Shown one piece after another: positions 1,576-62,504 of a stretch of DNA of 64,000 nucleotides (position 1 is its first letter; every line of letters starts with the position of its first letter). The stretch comes from Candidatus Brockarchaeota archaeon (GTDB taxonomy: Archaea; Thermoproteota; EX4484-205; JAAOZP01), in NCBI GenBank assembly GCA_017601225.1, contig JAFNIX010000005.1, positions 55,831-119,830 on the forward strand, in the 5' to 3' direction. The notes under the pieces were generated by a model, which saw only the letters and a program-made list of their open reading frames with translations, searched no databases and was not told where the DNA came from. Both the position numbers and the translations under genes were made by a program.

Positions 1576-4047
1576 TTACCATTTTAAATACTGCTTTTTC
1601 ATGAGAATGTATTTAATAAAATCGTTTATTATCAGCGAGAATATTGCGGAATACCCTAGCACTGTAAGCATGAGAATCGGAGGCAGCGGCTTTAGACTAG
1701 GCATGCCGAATAGCGCTATGAGGATCGCTACCGTTAAATCAAGCACCACTGCTATTAGTAAAGCTTTTCCAGGTTTAGAATGCCAGAAGTGTCCTCTCTC
1801 CCTTGCTACGAGTATTGAGAATAAGGCGAACAAGAGGAGTGTTTGGAAGCTGAACATATGTAGGGTTTGCTCGTCACTCAGTATGTTAAAGAATCTGATT
1901 CCGATGAATAGTAATCCGAATGCTTCTAGAACCATGAGTGAACCCAGAATTATTGCCACTTTCATGAGTCCTGTTATGTTCCATTTGCAGGGGTTCTTAG
2001 ACCATCTTACATTATCAGTGGATAAAGATATTTTCACGAAATCCGTCATAAATAGCATTAGGAGCATTGCAGAAGAAGATATAACGTACTTGCCCGTAAG
2101 CAGGAAGGCTGAAACCACAAAGACGGTCTTCAGTATGGTTCTAGTTATCTTGTTCAGAATCCAAGTGTTTATTCTTTCGAATATGGATCTGCCGATTTCA
2201 ACCAGAGTCAACATGCTTGTTAAACCCTCGCTGGTCAGCACAACGCTGGCAGCTCCTTTAGCCACATCAGTGGCGTTTGCAACAGCTATGCCTACTTCAG
2301 CCTGCCTTAAGGCGGGTGCATCATTCACACCGTCACCAGTCATTCCAACTATGTGAGCCCTCTCCTGAAGACTCTTCACAATCACGTATTTATCTTCAGG
2401 ATAAACCTCCGCGAAGCCACTGCTTCCCTCAGCTATTTCTCCAGCCCTAGATTGATCGCCCTTCATGAGCTCTTTAAGCTCTGACGCTTTGATCACATTG
2501 TTTCCGAGGCCGATCTCCTTTGCTATTTCCTTGGCTATTGGTAACGCATCGCCTGTCATCATCTTGACAGCCACGCCTAGGCTTTTAAGCTCCTCAATAA
2601 GGTTTTTAGCATCCGGTCTGGGCGCGTCATATAATGCTGCCAGCCCCACGAGTTCAAACGATTCATCCCCAATAGATTTCGCCACAGCTATTGTTCGATA
2701 ACCCCTCTGAGTGAACTTGTCAACTTTCTCCATGACCTCCTTTAACCTGTTATCATCCAGCCTACATATTTCAGCCACAGTGTTAACAGCACCTTTGACA
2801 ACCCTGAACTCTGAACCATTAACCTGTATTAGTGCCTCAGTTCTACGCGTCTTAGGATCGAACGGTATGAAAGATTTCTGCGTGAAATCGTCAAGAGGCA
2901 ATTTTCTCCGCCTAGCCATGTCTATGAAGGCCAAGTCTATCGGGTCCTGATTAGCCTCCTGAGAAGCTAAGGCTCCGCAGAGAATAACCTCATCCTCATC
3001 ATGGTTGCCCAGCGGCTTTACATCAACCATAGAAAGCCTATTCATCGTTATTGTACCTGTTTTATCTACACATAGAACATCCATGCTTGCAGCATCATCG
3101 GACGCGCTGAGCCTCGTTACCAACACGTTTTTACCGGCTAGCTCCATGGATCCCACAGCCATGCTGACCGTAAACATGGCTGGTAAAGCAACTGGTACAG
3201 CACCCAGCATTAATACGAGCATTAACGGCAAAATTTCCAGCAAGTCTATTCCCCTGATCACGGAGAATATTGCTGCTATGCACAGCATTACTCCAACTAT
3301 GACTAGAAGCCATTTGAGGACTCTGGAGACCACTTCCTCCATGTGCAGTTTAGGACGTGCAACTTGAACGAGCTGAGCTGTCCTGCCAAAATACGTTTTA
3401 ACGCCTGTAAGCACAACTATGCCGGTGGATTCTCCCCGCCTTATAATGGAGCCCGAGTACAATATGTCACCTAGCCTCTTCTCAACCTCCATAGATTCAC
3501 CGGTTAATGCTGACTGGTCAACCCAAACCTCACCGATAGCGATTTTAATATCTGCTGGAACAAAGTCACCAGCCCTGACTCTAACAACATCTCCAGGTAC
3601 AAGCTCTCTCGATGGAACTAGCCTCCAAACACCATCCCTGAGAACCCTAGCGTTAATTTGAAGCTTACTCTTTAGAAGTTCCACGGCTTTAGAAGCCCTC
3701 TGTTCTTGAATAAACCCCAATATAGAGTTTAATACGAGCAAGGCCGTTACAGTGTATAAGTCTATATATTTACCCAGTACAAGTGCGAGGACTATTATGG
3801 CCTCAAGCATCCAAGCAGTTAAACCCCAAAACTTCCTGACAAACAAAACAATAGGATGAACTTTTTTCTCAGGGACCTCGTTGTAACCATACTGCTTTAA
3901 TCTGCGATCAACTTCGCTTTGACTTAATCCCAAGCCTAAATCAGTTTTCAGAAGATTTACAGTTTCCTCTATAGTCTTTTTCCGGAAGTCTTGCATTACA
4001 TTGTTCATAGGCTTCATCAAGTTATTCATTTTTAAGTCTATTGGCAA
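1576..4047 (-). CDS. P-type cation-transporting ATPase, type IIIA (plasma-membrane H+-ATPase-like, cf. archaeal MJ1226-type)
   Basis: 823 aa. Phosphorylation motif CVDKTGTITMN, hinge MTGDGVNDAPALRQAEVGIAV, and an N-terminal YGYNEVPEKK segment typical of PMA-type pumps. About 10 TM helices. Confidence 0.8.
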   Translation of the reverse strand: MPIDLKMNNLMKPMNNVMQDFRKKTIEETVNLLKTDLGLGLSQSEVDRRLKQYGYNEVPEKKVHPIVLFVRKFWGLTAWMLEAIIVLALVLGKYIDLYTVTALLVLNSILGFIQEQRASKAVELLKSKLQINARVLRDGVWRLVPSRELVPGDVVRVRAGDFVPADIKIAIGEVWVDQSALTGESMEVEKRLGDILYSGSIIRRGESTGIVVLTGVKTYFGRTAQLVQVARPKLHMEEVVSRVLKWLLVIVGVMLCIAAIFSVIRGIDLLEILPLMLVLMLGAVPVALPAMFTVSMAVGSMELAGKNVLVTRLSASDDAASMDVLCVDKTGTITMNRLSMVDVKPLGNHDEDEVILCGALASQEANQDPIDLAFIDMARRRKLPLDDFTQKSFIPFDPKTRRTEALIQVNGSEFRVVKGAVNTVAEICRLDDNRLKEVMEKVDKFTQRGYRTIAVAKSIGDESFELVGLAALYDAPRPDAKNLIEELKSLGVAVKMMTGDALPIAKEIAKEIGLGNNVIKASELKELMKGDQSRAGEIAEGSSGFAEVYPEDKYVIVKSLQERAHIVGMTGDGVNDAPALRQAEVGIAVANATDVAKGAASVVLTSEGLTSMLTLVEIGRSIFERINTWILNKITRTILKTVFVVSAFLLTGKYVISSSAMLLMLFMTDFVKISLSTDNVRWSKNPCKWNITGLMKVAIILGSLMVLEAFGLLFIGIRFFNILSDEQTLHMFSFQTLLLFALFSILVARERGHFWHSKPGKALLIAVVLDLTVAILIALFGMPSLKPLPPILMLTVLGYSAIFSLIINDFIKYILMKKQYLKW

Positions 4048-38857: not shown

Positions 38858-40063
38858 CTACTTCTCTTGCTCCCTCTTACCATAGAGCTGGTATGGTAAA
38901 GCGTAGAGCTTAACCGCTCCAGTAGCATCTCTCTGGTCGAAGCCAGCCTTCTTAATAGATCTTAACTCTGGTGAGAAGAGACTGTATTTAGACTCTCTAC
39001 CAACAACCTCCACGTTACCCTTGTAAAGCTTCACGTCAAGCCTCCCGGAAACATATTTTTGCGTAGAGTCTATGAAAGCGTCGAGATCCCTCCTCAACGG
39101 GTGGAACCACATTCCATGGTAAACTATTTCAGCCCAAATCTTGTCTATCTCCCTCTTAACTTTCAGCTGCTCCTTAGTAAGGGTTAACTGTTCAAGGTTT
39201 CCATGAGTACTTAAGAGTATTGTTGCAGCCGGCGCCTCGTAAAGCTCTCTGGATTTTAAACCTAGTATACCGTCTTCAATTATGTCTATTCTCCCAACGC
39301 CGTGTTGCCCACCAATCCTGTTCAGATAGAGTATTATTTCAACAGGGTCTTTTACCCCATCTACTTCGACAGGAACCCCTTTCTCATAGGTTATTTGAAT
39401 CTTCTGCGGAGTGTCTGGAGCCTTCTCAGGATGGACGGCCCAGATATAGTCCTCAGGGTACTGTGTGTAAAGGTCTTCAACCTGCCCGCTCCCAATGGAG
39501 TGAGACCACATGTTCACGTCTCCACCCAGCTTCCCCTTAGGCTTCTTAGGCTCAATACCGTGTTTCCTGAGGATCTCCTCCTCTTCAAACCTTGAGAGGT
39601 TCAGCTCTCTAACTGGCGCTATCACCTTCAGGTTTGGATCAACATATTTAACTGCAACCTCCATCCTGAACTGGTCGTTACCCTTGCCTGTGCAACCGTG
39701 TGCAACAGCCTCAGCCCCCTCTTTCTTAGCTATTTCAGCCGCCTTCGAAGCAATCAGAACCCTAGTCATAGAGGTTCCAACCGGGTAGCCCCCGTAGCTC
39801 CCGTTAGCCTTGATGCATCTGAATATGTATTCGGTGGCGAACTCGTGCTTAGCATCTATGAAACGTATCTTTAAACCCAGCTTCTCAGCTCTTTCATACG
39901 CGATCCTGATCTCCTCCTCTCCTTGGCCAACGTCGACAAGAACAGGAATCACTTCATCATAGCCATACTTCTCTTTCAACAGTATAGTTATTAGTGTGGA
40001 GTCAAGGCCGCCTGAGTATGTTGAAACAACTTTCCCCGGCATTTCGAGAGTGGTGTGTCCCAC
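38858..40063 (-). CDS. argG: argininosuccinate synthase
   Basis: 401 aa. N-terminal PP-loop VVSTYSGGLDST and the conserved ArgG core (AHGCTGKGNDQ.RFE). Confidence 0.9.
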   Translation of the reverse strand: MGHTTLEMPGKVVSTYSGGLDSTLITILLKEKYGYDEVIPVLVDVGQGEEEIRIAYERAEKLGLKIRFIDAKHEFATEYIFRCIKANGSYGGYPVGTSMTRVLIASKAAEIAKKEGAEAVAHGCTGKGNDQFRMEVAVKYVDPNLKVIAPVRELNLSRFEEEEILRKHGIEPKKPKGKLGGDVNMWSHSIGSGQVEDLYTQYPEDYIWAVHPEKAPDTPQKIQITYEKGVPVEVDGVKDPVEIILYLNRIGGQHGVGRIDIIEDGILGLKSRELYEAPAATILLSTHGNLEQLTLTKEQLKVKREIDKIWAEIVYHGMWFHPLRRDLDAFIDSTQKYVSGRLDVKLYKGNVEVVGRESKYSLFSPELRSIKKAGFDQRDATGAVKLYALPYQLYGKREQEK

Positions 40064-60389: not shown

Positions 60390-60734
60390 CTAATGTTCTC
60401 CAACATTTTCCTCTAAATCAGTTTGTTGGGGAGGTGGCCCGATGCGTAACGGCCTGCCTTCACTGAGGGCTTGAGCCGTCTTCCTCCTAGCGTTCTGCAA
60501 AAGCCTCCACACGGTTCCCCTTGAGACCCCCATCCTCCCTCCTGCTTCCTCCTGCGAAAGCCCCTCTAGGTCAACGAGCCTGAAGGCCTCCAGTTCATCA
60601 GGCTCAAGGTAAACAGGCTCCGTTTTTCCCTGTGTTCCAACCGGGTCTAGCCCAGTAATAGGTGGAAGAGCCCCCAACCATACTGGTTTAGGCATCCTTC
60701 CTCTTCGGCCATGCCTATGCCTTCTCCTATACAT
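60390..60734 (-). CDS. DUF134/UPF0251-family predicted DNA-binding protein (sigma-70 region-4-like HTH)
   Basis: 114 aa. The MPKP..YLEPDELEAFRLVDLEGLSQEEAGGRMGVSRGTVWRLLQNARRKTAQAL..GRPLRI pattern matches the DUF134 consensus. Confidence 0.7.
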   Translation of the reverse strand: MYRRRHRHGRRGRMPKPVWLGALPPITGLDPVGTQGKTEPVYLEPDELEAFRLVDLEGLSQEEAGGRMGVSRGTVWRLLQNARRKTAQALSEGRPLRIGPPPQQTDLEENVGEH

Positions 60735-60755
60735 TGCTCAGTAGCCTCCGGGACG

Positions 60756-60806
60756 CAATATTTATATATTTGTGCACAGTCCCAATATTCATGAAAAATG
60801 TGCATA
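60756..60806. promoter_or_regulatory. two direct copies of CAATATT-N8/9-TGTGCA (the first ends in the palindrome TGTGCACA) in the 98-bp divergent intergenic region; candidate operator. A GGAGGTGA Shine-Dalgarno lies 8 nt before the + strand ATG.
   Basis: Read directly: CAATATTtatatattTGTGCACA at 60756-60778, and CAATATTcatgaaaaaTGTGCAT at 60783-60805. Confidence 0.3.
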
Positions 60807-60832
60807 ATCACAAAAAGGAGGTGAATTGAAAA

Positions 60833-61090
60833 ATGAGGTATAGGCACAGGAATCTTTTCTACTTAACCGGTCTCCCCGGATGCCTCAGGTTCGGCTTCTC
60901 CCCTGGATGGTTAGAGCCAGCTCCTGAAGGCAGGCCGCCTGCACCCCCTCCATCTAGAATACTCTTCCCGCCGGCTTATGGTTTGGAGCAGGAGCGAACA
61001 GTGCTTGCACAACAGATTAAGATCTTGGAGTCTCAGCTGGAAGCCGTTAGAAAAAGACTTGAAGAATTAAGCGGTAAAGGAAGTAAGTAG
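60833..61090 (+). CDS. DUF5320-like small protein with C-terminal coiled coil
   Basis: 85 aa. Aromatic/Pro-rich N-terminal part (RNLFYLTGLPG..) and a C-terminal LAQQIKILESQLEAVRKRLEEL heptad region like DUF5320. Strong SD upstream. Confidence 0.4.
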   Translation: MRYRHRNLFYLTGLPGCLRFGFSPGWLEPAPEGRPPAPPPSRILFPPAYGLEQERTVLAQQIKILESQLEAVRKRLEELSGKGSK

Positions 61091-61103
61091 GGGGCGAATA
61101 ATA

Positions 61104-61352
61104 TTGCCGGGCTGGCTCTGCTGGTTCTGGTGGCTGGCATCGCCCTACTGGCATCCTTATGCTCGGTGCTTCTGGAGGCTATACCCATGGTTTCCATTAG
61201 CTTCTCGGAGAGCATTGATGCATGGGCCACTGCTGTTTGCCCTACCCCAGATGACTAGGGAGCAAGAGATAAGTCTTCTTGAATGGCGAAGAAGTCTTAT
61301 CCAGCAGGAGCTCGATTACGTAAACAAGAGGCTTGAGGAGTTAAGGAAGTGA
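61104..61352 (+). CDS. DUF5320-like small protein, tandem paralog (N-terminal frame uncertain)
   Basis: 82 aa. The C-terminal EQEISLLEWRRSLIQQELDYVNKRLEEL parallels the previous ORF. The N-terminal 35 codons are W-rich, and all three frames are open there. Confidence 0.3.
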   Translation: MPGWLCWFWWLASPYWHPYARCFWRLYPWFPLASRRALMHGPLLFALPQMTREQEISLLEWRRSLIQQELDYVNKRLEELRK

Positions 61353-61503
61353 TCGTCTAGGATAAGGGTTTCTTGGGCAAAAGGAATAGGAGGATTTAAG
61401 ACTGAAGCCTGACAGAGAGGGCAGGATACTCCGAAAACTCTAGGAGATGTCGATTAACAGTAAGACGTATATAGATGCAAGTAGTTGAGCATAGTGATTC
61501 AGA

Positions 61504-61875
61504 ATGCGGATTGTAATACCGGTTGAGGAGGATCGTGGCTTGGATTCACGTGTATCTGAACACTTTGGCAGAGCCCCCTTATTCTTGATGCTAGAGCTTG
61601 ATGAGGATGGACGAGTTTTAAAGCAGGAGGCTTTACGCAACGAGGGTGAGCATTTCGGGGGGATGGGTCGGCCTGCAGACCGTATACTTCAGCTTAAGCC
61701 AGATGCAGTCATCGTCCATGGCATGGGGCCAAGGGCACTAAGCATATTCCAACAGGCAAAGATAGCTGTCTTGAAAGCTAACTCTAACCTTGTCAGGGAA
61801 CTGCTCCCATCATATGTTAAAGACGAGCTTGAAGAATTGACTGAAGGCTGTCACCAGGCCCGTCATCAATATTAG
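61504..61875 (+). CDS. dinitrogenase FeMo-cofactor-binding-domain protein (NifX/NafY/NifB-C-terminal-like)
   Basis: 123 aa. RIVIPVEEDRGLDSRVSEHFGRAPLF..DAVIVHGMGPRA matches the Nitro_FeMo-Co domain consensus. Confidence 0.8.
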   Translation: MRIVIPVEEDRGLDSRVSEHFGRAPLFLMLELDEDGRVLKQEALRNEGEHFGGMGRPADRILQLKPDAVIVHGMGPRALSIFQQAKIAVLKANSNLVRELLPSYVKDELEELTEGCHQARHQY

Positions 61876-61913
61876 TCAGAGTCTCTAGCAAGTTTATAAG
61901 TCTGGTTTGTGCA

Positions 61914-62504
61914 TTGTGTTTAACAGCCATGCGTAAAGACTCTGCTTGGGAGAGCATAATCCGCGAGGCGTACGCTGCCTCCAGAGGACTAGGGATTCCA
62001 ACTATAGGTATGGATGACGGCTACGTGCTTTATTCAACAGCCTTCCTAGTGTCTCTACGGTTTGGACGGTTGAAAGCAATGGATGCGGGTGCAGGCGCAG
62101 GGTTTTCAACAGTATGGATTGCCAGAGCCATTTTAGAATCAGGGATTGAAGGCAATGTGCACGCGGTTGAGAAGACGAGCCAGAGATTCAAGAGTCTTAA
62201 GAGTCTTGTGGCTAAGCATCATTTGGAGGGCTTGATCACGCCGGTTAACGGCGATGCGTTTGATCATGCTGGGAAAGTTGAGGAGCTAAATCTGGTCTTC
62301 ATAGATATCGAGAAGGAGCAGTACTTGGATTTTTTCCGTCTGATTAAGAGTAGGATCCCTCGCGGCGGGGTTGTGCTTGCACATAACGTTAACCACCCCT
62401 ATGGTACTGTAGAGGTTTTTCTAAAAGAAGCCTCTCAGGGGGTTTGGAGAACCATCATAGTTCCCACTCAGGCAGGAATCTCTATAAGTGTTAAGACTGG
62501 CTAG
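61914..62504 (+). CDS. class I SAM-dependent methyltransferase (O-methyltransferase family-3/COMT-like)
   Basis: 196 aa. SAM motif I AMDAGAGAGFST, acidic motif II (VFIDIEK) and an overall catechol-OMT-like layout. A TATA-like box and TGTGCAT lie just upstream. Confidence 0.65.
   Translation: MCLTAMRKDSAWESIIREAYAASRGLGIPTIGMDDGYVLYSTAFLVSLRFGRLKAMDAGAGAGFSTVWIARAILESGIEGNVHAVEKTSQRFKSLKSLVAKHHLEGLITPVNGDAFDHAGKVEELNLVFIDIEKEQYLDFFRLIKSRIPRGGVVLAHNVNHPYGTVEVFLKEASQGVWRTIIVPTQAGISISVKTG

Follow-up and report, generated by a model that had tools for sequence, protein, structure and literature searches.

We analyzed a 64,000-nucleotide stretch of the genome of a Candidatus Brockarchaeota archaeon (contig JAFNIX010000005.1; hereafter the window), with a focus on two palindromic sequences in the divergent promoter region of a DUF134 gene. 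The intergenic spacer that contains them comprises 98 bp (60735–60832) and, as the initial annotation had described, separates the gene for a DUF134 (UPF0251) protein of 114 amino acids (60390–60734, minus strand; PF02001, 69.5 bits, plus a match to Sigma70_r4) from the first of two DUF5320-like genes (60833–61090, plus strand, ATG at 60833; PF17253, 27.1 bits). The Shine-Dalgarno sequence of this first gene, GGAGGTGA (60817–60824, plus strand), is located 8 nt before its ATG. The second DUF5320-like open reading frame (ORF), with a TTG start (61104–61352, plus strand) and a weak Pfam match (E = 0.0074), is kept in the related loci L002–L004 and is probably co-transcribed with the first. Further downstream lie a Nitro_FeMo-Co (NifX/orange-protein-like) gene (61504–61875, plus strand; PF02579, 62 bits) and a methyltransferase gene, which ends at 62504 and whose first ATG at 61929 is kept in orthologs. 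No tRNA genes were found in the window. A protein identical to its DUF134 protein is on record from a Thermoproteota MAG. Four contigs of metagenome-assembled genomes (MAGs) from hot springs, labeled Thermoproteota, Nitrososphaerota or Thaumarchaeota, showed the same gene order and encoded DUF134 proteins 89–97% identical to that of the window. Since these syntenic contigs belong to archaeal MAGs, we read the promoters of the locus in terms of TATA and TFB recognition (BRE) elements. More generally, a DUF5320-type protein is encoded by the divergent first gene in most archaeal DUF134 loci, and a Nitro_FeMo-Co gene adjoins DUF134 in most loci.

Comparison of DUF134 loci revealed that the element they share is a 14-bp imperfect palindrome, TGTGnTTATGCACA, of the form TGTG-N6-CACA, usually present in two copies. 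We collected 100 loci in all. A first set of 92, with 12 loci from genomes and 80 from metagenomes, provided the DUF134 upstream regions for a position weight matrix, and another protein search later contributed eight more loci. With its flanks and read towards DUF134, the family consensus is TTnTGTGnTTATGCACAnWW, the position after TGTG being A, C or T. The right half (ATGCACA) was more conserved than the left, and on the plus strand of the window this better half reads TGTGCA. The exact TGTG-N6-CACA pattern was present in 73 of the 92 loci; when redundancy was removed and 200 nt before each DUF134 gene were considered, 33 of 56 regions contained it. At least one matrix site was found upstream of DUF134 in 87 of the 92 loci and at least two in 75; among the five site-less loci, three have less than 70 nt of upstream sequence. 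The palindrome was also present in all eight added loci, seven of them bacterial and one with an archaeal-type cassette. Counting the window together with the 75 loci gave 76 pairs of sites, of which 72 shared one orientation, with a start-to-start spacing of 24 bp (28 loci), 25 bp (26), 26 bp (14), 28 bp (seven, forming the clade of the window) or 23 bp (one). The upstream DNA (31.3 kb) contained 165 sites, or 5.28 per kb, versus 10 sites in 406.8 kb elsewhere (0.025 per kb), a difference of approximately 200-fold, and the palindrome was conserved above background in orthologous promoters from Thermoproteota to Nitrospirota.

The spacer of the window contains two such palindromes. Site A, the strong one (TGTGCATAATCACA, or TGTGATTATGCACA read towards DUF134), is located at 60799–60812 with T/A-rich flanks (60796–60815) and is the sole exact TGTG-N6-CACA in the 64 kb. 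A matrix whose training set excluded the clade of the window gave it 27.8 bits, and no equal match occurred in 100 simulated 64-kb windows. Site A was kept in L001, L002, L004 and L013, and carried one mismatch in L003 and L014. Site B, the weak palindrome (TGTGCACAGTCCCA, or TGGGACTGTGCACA towards DUF134), is located at 60771–60784. It is oriented like site A, from which it is spaced by 28 bp, and starts 2 nt after the predicted TATA box. Its score was 15.4–17.9 bits, a level expected about 0.1 times per random window, and it stands at the family second-site position, which is occupied in 75 other loci. Within the clade of the window site B is degenerate, its left half reading CGAG in L001–L003 and the site being partly deleted in L004. 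A matrix scan of the whole window returned nothing beyond sites A and B at ≥12 bits.

The archaeal cassettes showed a fixed order towards DUF134, consisting of the divergent start codon, the complement of a Shine-Dalgarno sequence, site A, site B, a TATA box and DUF134. A TATA-like element (GAAATATATAAAAG) started 2–5 nt after site B in all 66 of the 66 non-identical two-site archaeal cassettes, in which the divergent start codon lay 20–30 nt from site A. The spacer from site A to site B was approximately 10–14 nt, and the Shine-Dalgarno complement TCACCTC was conserved across loci at approximately 7 nt from site A. The AT-rich sequence TTTATATA (TATATAAA on the minus strand; 60761–60768) is the predicted TATA box shared by the two promoters of the window. 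The block ACAAATATATAAATATTGCG, which covers the TATA region on the DUF134 strand, was invariant in a five-sequence alignment, and TTTTTGTGATTATGCA was the other invariant block among the close orthologs. On the minus strand, a distance of 26 nt separates this TATA box from the DUF134 ATG; we therefore predict a DUF134 transcript with little or no leader, and site B abuts the BRE side of this promoter's TATA box. In archaea, transcription usually starts approximately 23–27 nt from the TATA box. The DUF5320 transcript is predicted to start at approximately 60791–60795; relative to this start, site B would cover roughly −21 to −8 and site A roughly +5 to +20.

Approximately 24 loci carry an additional ORF of about 52 amino acids between the operator/TATA cassette and DUF134 (e.g., L025:2790–2948, L006:3747–3920 and L023:2817–2975), apparently co-transcribed with DUF134. 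Its pattern is MRKEEEIRKRLE.LEKERETEGPFTE..NIARKA.KQAL.WVLEE.D.LLTY; it matched no Pfam family, and the window lacks it. The same ORF, together with a full archaeal two-site cassette, was found in L099, a 4.3-kb contig binned as Fervidobacterium sp. (a Thermotogota MAG), whose DUF134 protein was 67% identical to that of the window. L099 is either a mis-binned contig or a recent archaea-to-bacteria transfer.

In bacteria, the palindrome was found on promoters of the sigma-70 type. In nine loci (L010, L011, L093–L098 and L100), the DUF134 operon is preceded by a TTGACA-N17-TATAAT-like promoter whose −10 hexamer is immediately followed or overlapped by a perfect TGTGCATATGCACA. The Nitrospirota loci L010 and L011 each contained one perfect copy, which starts 2 nt after the −10 hexamer of a TTGACA/TTGACG-N17-TATCGT/TATCAT promoter; in L097, with a TTGACA-N17-TATAAT promoter, the last T of the −10 hexamer is the first base of the palindrome. 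In most bacterial loci DUF134 heads an operon with a Nitro_FeMo-Co gene, and some have DsrE, methyltransferase or rubrerythrin genes downstream; in L095 and L096, the DsrE gene directly follows DUF134 instead of Nitro_FeMo-Co. A DUF5320 homolog was not detected in the screened loci L010 and L011, and none was present among the called genes of L093–L098 and L100. The betaproteobacterial MAG locus L093 has a second promoter (487–532), TTGACA-N17-TATGTT followed by TGTGCATATGCACA, upstream of MamS/MamX-like and OsmC genes, which points to a regulon that would be larger there than the DUF134 operon.

In a Desulfovibrio locus (L012), the corresponding promoter position, immediately behind a −10-like TATTTT, is taken by a different palindrome, TGAACATAATTTCA (3965–3978). 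No other TGAA-N6-TTCA occurs in the 8.2 kb of this locus, and the sequence is similar to the palindrome of Bacillus subtilis DeoR. The recognition helix of the L012 protein reads SRPTLCRIL, versus SRGTVW/QRLL with the TGTG palindrome. The helix and the palindrome thus change together, which may reflect a covariation or switch of specificity, seen here in one anecdotal case.

The DUF134 family (UPF0251, COG1342) is widespread in anaerobic archaea and bacteria, with more than 1,200 homologs per protein search. The window protein exceeded the gathering score of PF02001 (69.5 bits versus a cutoff of 27; E = 3.7e-19), scored 86 bits against NCBIfam PRK04217, under the equivalog cutoff of 115, and matched Sigma70_r4_2 in addition to Sigma70_r4. 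Its AlphaFold model showed a three-helix core (residues 41–98; helices 45–56, 61–68 and 72–92) with a predicted local distance difference test score (pLDDT) >90, and an Arg-rich N-terminal arm of low confidence. In Foldseek searches, the core matched region 4 of extracytoplasmic function (ECF) sigma factors on −35 DNA and the DNA-binding domain of B. subtilis DeoR on its operator, with root mean square deviations (rmsd) of 0.5–1.2 Å over 39–51 alignment columns at 23–41% identity. A search of solved structures returned no DUF134 structure and matches at the level of the helix-turn-helix (HTH) only. Among the genes of the compared loci, DUF134 was the only DNA-binding gene that always accompanied the palindrome. 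A record labeled ‘Candidatus Jordarchaeales’ (protein P0010) apparently holds this same gene, frameshifted within the part that encodes the HTH; its N- and C-termini are identical to those of the window protein, its middle is scrambled, and its label renders the taxonomy recorded for the lineage inconsistent. P0010 is likely an assembly or binning variant.

Among the closest characterized proteins is DeoR, a member of the SorC family. The N-terminal domain of B. subtilis DeoR (PDB 7bhy and 8r7y) binds the palindrome TTGAACAAAATTCAA as a dimer, and the DeoR tetramer binds two half-operators at the promoter of a divergently placed operon (PMC11229326). When the DUF134 profile was compared with solved structures, DeoR gave the best sequence match (E = 6e-4), and after sigma region 4 it was among the closest fold matches (38–41% identity, rmsd 0.6–1.2 Å, approximately 40 residues); its operator is likewise a short palindrome with an AT-rich center. 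The two differ in that DeoR carries a C-terminal sugar-phosphate effector domain of approximately 250 amino acids, whereas DUF134 proteins comprise approximately 90–115 amino acids and match DeoR in the HTH region alone; lacking an effector domain, the window protein does not belong to the SorC/DeoR family. DUF134 further has an Arg-/Cys-rich N-terminal arm, a half-site of TGTGCA rather than TTGAA, and a distribution that includes archaea.

Taken together, the two palindromes of the spacer are probably operators of the adjacent DUF134 protein, which would regulate its own synthesis. An operator role for this protein and its autoregulation had already been proposed in the initial annotation. 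Both proposals gain strong comparative support from the palindrome found in DUF134 promoters in 87 of 92 loci, whereas the motif as then defined was not the functional unit. A DUF134 dimer would sit on each 14-bp palindrome, and sites A and B might be bound cooperatively, as by DeoR tetramers across two half-operators; the DeoR dimer on its palindrome and the tetramer over two half-operators provide the precedent for both steps. Occupation of sites A and B would block recruitment of RNA polymerase at the DUF5320 promoter and lead to its repression, and through site B, beside the BRE of its own promoter, DUF134 would modulate its own synthesis.

The placement of the sites is consistent with repression. 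The palindrome overlaps or abuts core promoter elements in both domains of life, relative to transcription starts that are themselves predicted, and repressors classically act from operators on the −10/+1 region. The operators of the archaeal repressors MDR1, LrpA, Phr and those of the TrmB type are located downstream of the TATA box. The positions of the DUF134 sites, between TATA box and start codon in archaea and on −10/+1 in bacteria, are typical of a repressor. As with these archaeal repressors, the proposed DUF134 operators are found downstream of the TATA box and ahead of the start codon, over the predicted transcription start and next to the gene of the regulator, which is probably autoregulated. 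The archaeal proteins belong to the DtxR, Lrp/AsnC, ArsR-like winged HTH and TrmB families, whereas DUF134 has an HTH of the sigma-70 region-4 type, and its operator, unlike theirs, is also found at bacterial promoters.

Several observations weigh against this assignment or narrow its reach. The assignment of DUF134 as the protein that binds the palindrome is based on co-localization and on fold class. The background used for the enrichment consisted of the flanks of the loci and the 64-kb window, and the loci themselves were gathered through DUF134 homology. The Bipolaricaulota locus L009 encodes a DUF134 protein with a similar recognition helix and has no site within three mismatches, so that the operator is not universal in the family. 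Being weak here and partly deleted in L004, site B may be non-functional in the clade of the window. Sites upstream of the BRE and TATA box can activate transcription in archaea, and the effect on DUF134's own promoter could for this reason be positive. Finally, the Nitro_FeMo-Co gene has a conserved TATA-like sequence of its own, GTATATAG (61467–61474), inside the conserved block TTAACAGTAAGACGTATATAGA, the methyltransferase gene has the conserved TATA-like box AAGTTTATAAGT (61890–61901), and no matrix site was found near either; both genes are therefore probably transcribed from promoters without DUF134 sites. With this TATA-like block and no site at the Nitro_FeMo-Co gene, the predicted direct targets are the two DUF5320-like genes and DUF134 itself, and direct operator control of the Nitro_FeMo-Co gene is uncertain.

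The first alternative, which we consider unlikely, is that the palindromes are operators of another transcription factor whose gene lies at a distance, such as a regulator that responds to metals or redox state. This factor would govern the cluster of DUF134, DUF5320 and NifX-like genes, with DUF134 as no more than a target. CRP/FNR proteins bind TGTGA-N6-TCACA and Rex binds TTGTGAA-N4-TTCACAA, and the operators of both often overlap promoters. The DUF134 palindrome shares with these the outer TGTG and CACA halves and the AT-rich center, and a site-less locus such as L009, despite its similar helix, would also be understandable if the binder were another protein. The palindrome differs from those of CRP/FNR and Rex in having a 14-bp core with 6 rather than 8 nt between TGTG and CACA, a spacing that excludes sites of these types, and no gene of these families was linked to the sites. 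Moreover, the motif travels with DUF134 in archaea, in Nitrospirota and in the betaproteobacterial MAG despite differing promoters and neighbors, is nearly absent from the 407 kb of flanks and the rest of the window, and in L012 changes together with the recognition helix of the DUF134 protein. These observations argue for the adjacent DUF134 protein as the binder rather than a factor acting from elsewhere.

It is far less probable that the palindromes act as an RNA hairpin in the 5′ leader of the DUF5320 transcript, or only as core-promoter elements, even though site A is predicted to lie within this leader and the cassette stands in tight register with both TATA box and Shine-Dalgarno sequence. 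The leader folded at −2 kcal/mol (z = 0.55), no better than shuffled sequences, and no Rfam match was found in the window. Site B is upstream of the predicted transcription start, and the left-half variants TGAG and TGGG are not compensated on the right. Furthermore, bacterial sigma-70 promoters have no core elements in common with archaeal promoters, yet carry the same palindrome at −10/+1, which excludes a role as core-promoter elements only.

The least credible reading is that of the initial annotation, in which two CAATATT-N8/9-TGTGCA direct repeats and a third operator at the methyltransferase gene form a small regulon; the composite pattern does occur twice here, with none expected by chance, but it was never found twice in any other locus and was absent from 86 of the 92, and the methyltransferase site was supported neither by the matrix nor by conservation. 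The repeats had been located exactly: CAATATT at 60756–60762 is followed after 8 nt by TGTGCA at 60771–60776, within the 8-bp palindrome TGTGCACA (60771–60778), and CAATATT at 60783–60789 after 9 nt by TGTGCA at 60799–60804. Both copies of the composite in the 64 kb lie here, and none occurred in 100 shuffles. Taken singly, TGTGCA was found 28 times in the window versus 19.9 expected, which is not above chance, and CAATATT 23 times versus 9.6; a further CAATATT at 61867–61873, which had been passed over, was not conserved. Conservation of the composite in orthologous regions did not hold, with one copy in each of the six closest loci and none in the other 86. CAATATT proved not to be part of the motif, its second copy reading CGTTATT in L001–L003 (where the DUF134 protein is 89% identical). 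The first CAATATT is made up of the flank and first two bases of the predicted TATA box, and the second of the last two bases of putative site B and the start of the AT-rich spacer. Likewise, the weight placed on TGTGCACA was misplaced: 3 bp of it are deleted in L004, the closest relative, and it reads TATGCACA in L003, in which both TGTGCA copies carry a change. This 8-bp palindrome arises because position 8 of site B is a G here.

The proposed third site upstream of the methyltransferase gene, for its part, does have a TGTGCA between a conserved TATA-like box and the start of the gene. With the family matrix it scored −4.3 bits and is a lone half-site; in 4 of 4 orthologs it was replaced by an unrelated CCGTGGGCTATG-like sequence, with the adjacent AAGTTTATAAGT kept. 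With this site not conserved, a small regulon including the methyltransferase is unsupported. Two coordinates also required correction: the sequence tttataag, placed at about 61880–61888, is at 61893–61900 (a shift of approximately 13 nt), and position 61914, given as the ATG of the methyltransferase gene, has a TTG, with TTGTGCATTGTG at 61907–61918.

Returning to DUF134 as the binder, the arrangement itself is ordinary, since palindromic operators in a divergent promoter that also serves the gene of a small HTH regulator are of a known kind. The particular combination of DUF134 and this operator appears not to have been described before. A literature search on DUF134, UPF0251, COG1342, DUF5320 and the palindrome found no described function or binding site, and the sole mention of UPF0251 found was a secondary mutation in a Rex study. 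The 14-bp operator, with its fixed promoter place and its conservation across domains, makes the DUF134 family directly testable, supplies a matrix for reconstructing regulons in MAGs, and connects the regulator with DUF5320 and NifX/orange-protein-like genes, both of which are poorly understood.

More tentatively, and with somewhat less than even confidence, DUF134 might be a small repressor exchanged between archaea and bacteria together with its operator, TGTGCA-TA-TGCACA, and working on both TBP/TFB-dependent and sigma-70-dependent promoters. It would control a conserved anaerobe module of DUF5320 and NifX/orange-protein-like metal-cluster proteins, and may sense redox state or metal through its Cys-/Arg-rich arm or through partners. 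If so, one operator–regulator pair would serve two different basal transcription machineries, and a role would be defined for a widespread family without assigned function. With respect to the module, the window Nitro_FeMo-Co protein matched the C-terminal domain of NCBIfam MrpORP (E = 2.2e-8), and the divergent, anaerobe-specific orp operons of Desulfovibrio vulgaris have a related gene content (PMC6345978, PMC8359166). Regulation of the orp operons is different, in that their activation depends on sigma-54, the enhancer-binding protein OrpR and IHF (PMC8359166) and not on a palindromic operator at a TATA or sigma-70 promoter.

Within the window, other members of a DUF134 regulon were rejected, the matrix scan having found none. 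The doubled TGTGCA at 39689–39704 is not a site, as it had no match to the operator matrix; the sequence there, TGTGCAACCGTGTGCAAC, consists of TGTGCAAC repeated directly at a period of 10. Outside the window, four loci, including L059 and L053 (position 1243), had additional operator-like sites at a distance from DUF134. In L049 (4019–4032), TGTGCATATGCATA lies 13 nt after the TATA-like TTTATATTT and precedes an ORF that, on visual inspection, looks like a member of the CMD/AhpD family. In L057 (3748–3761), TGTGCAAAAGCACA is located 23 nt upstream of an ORF of 62 amino acids, beside a gene that by eye resembles FmdE.

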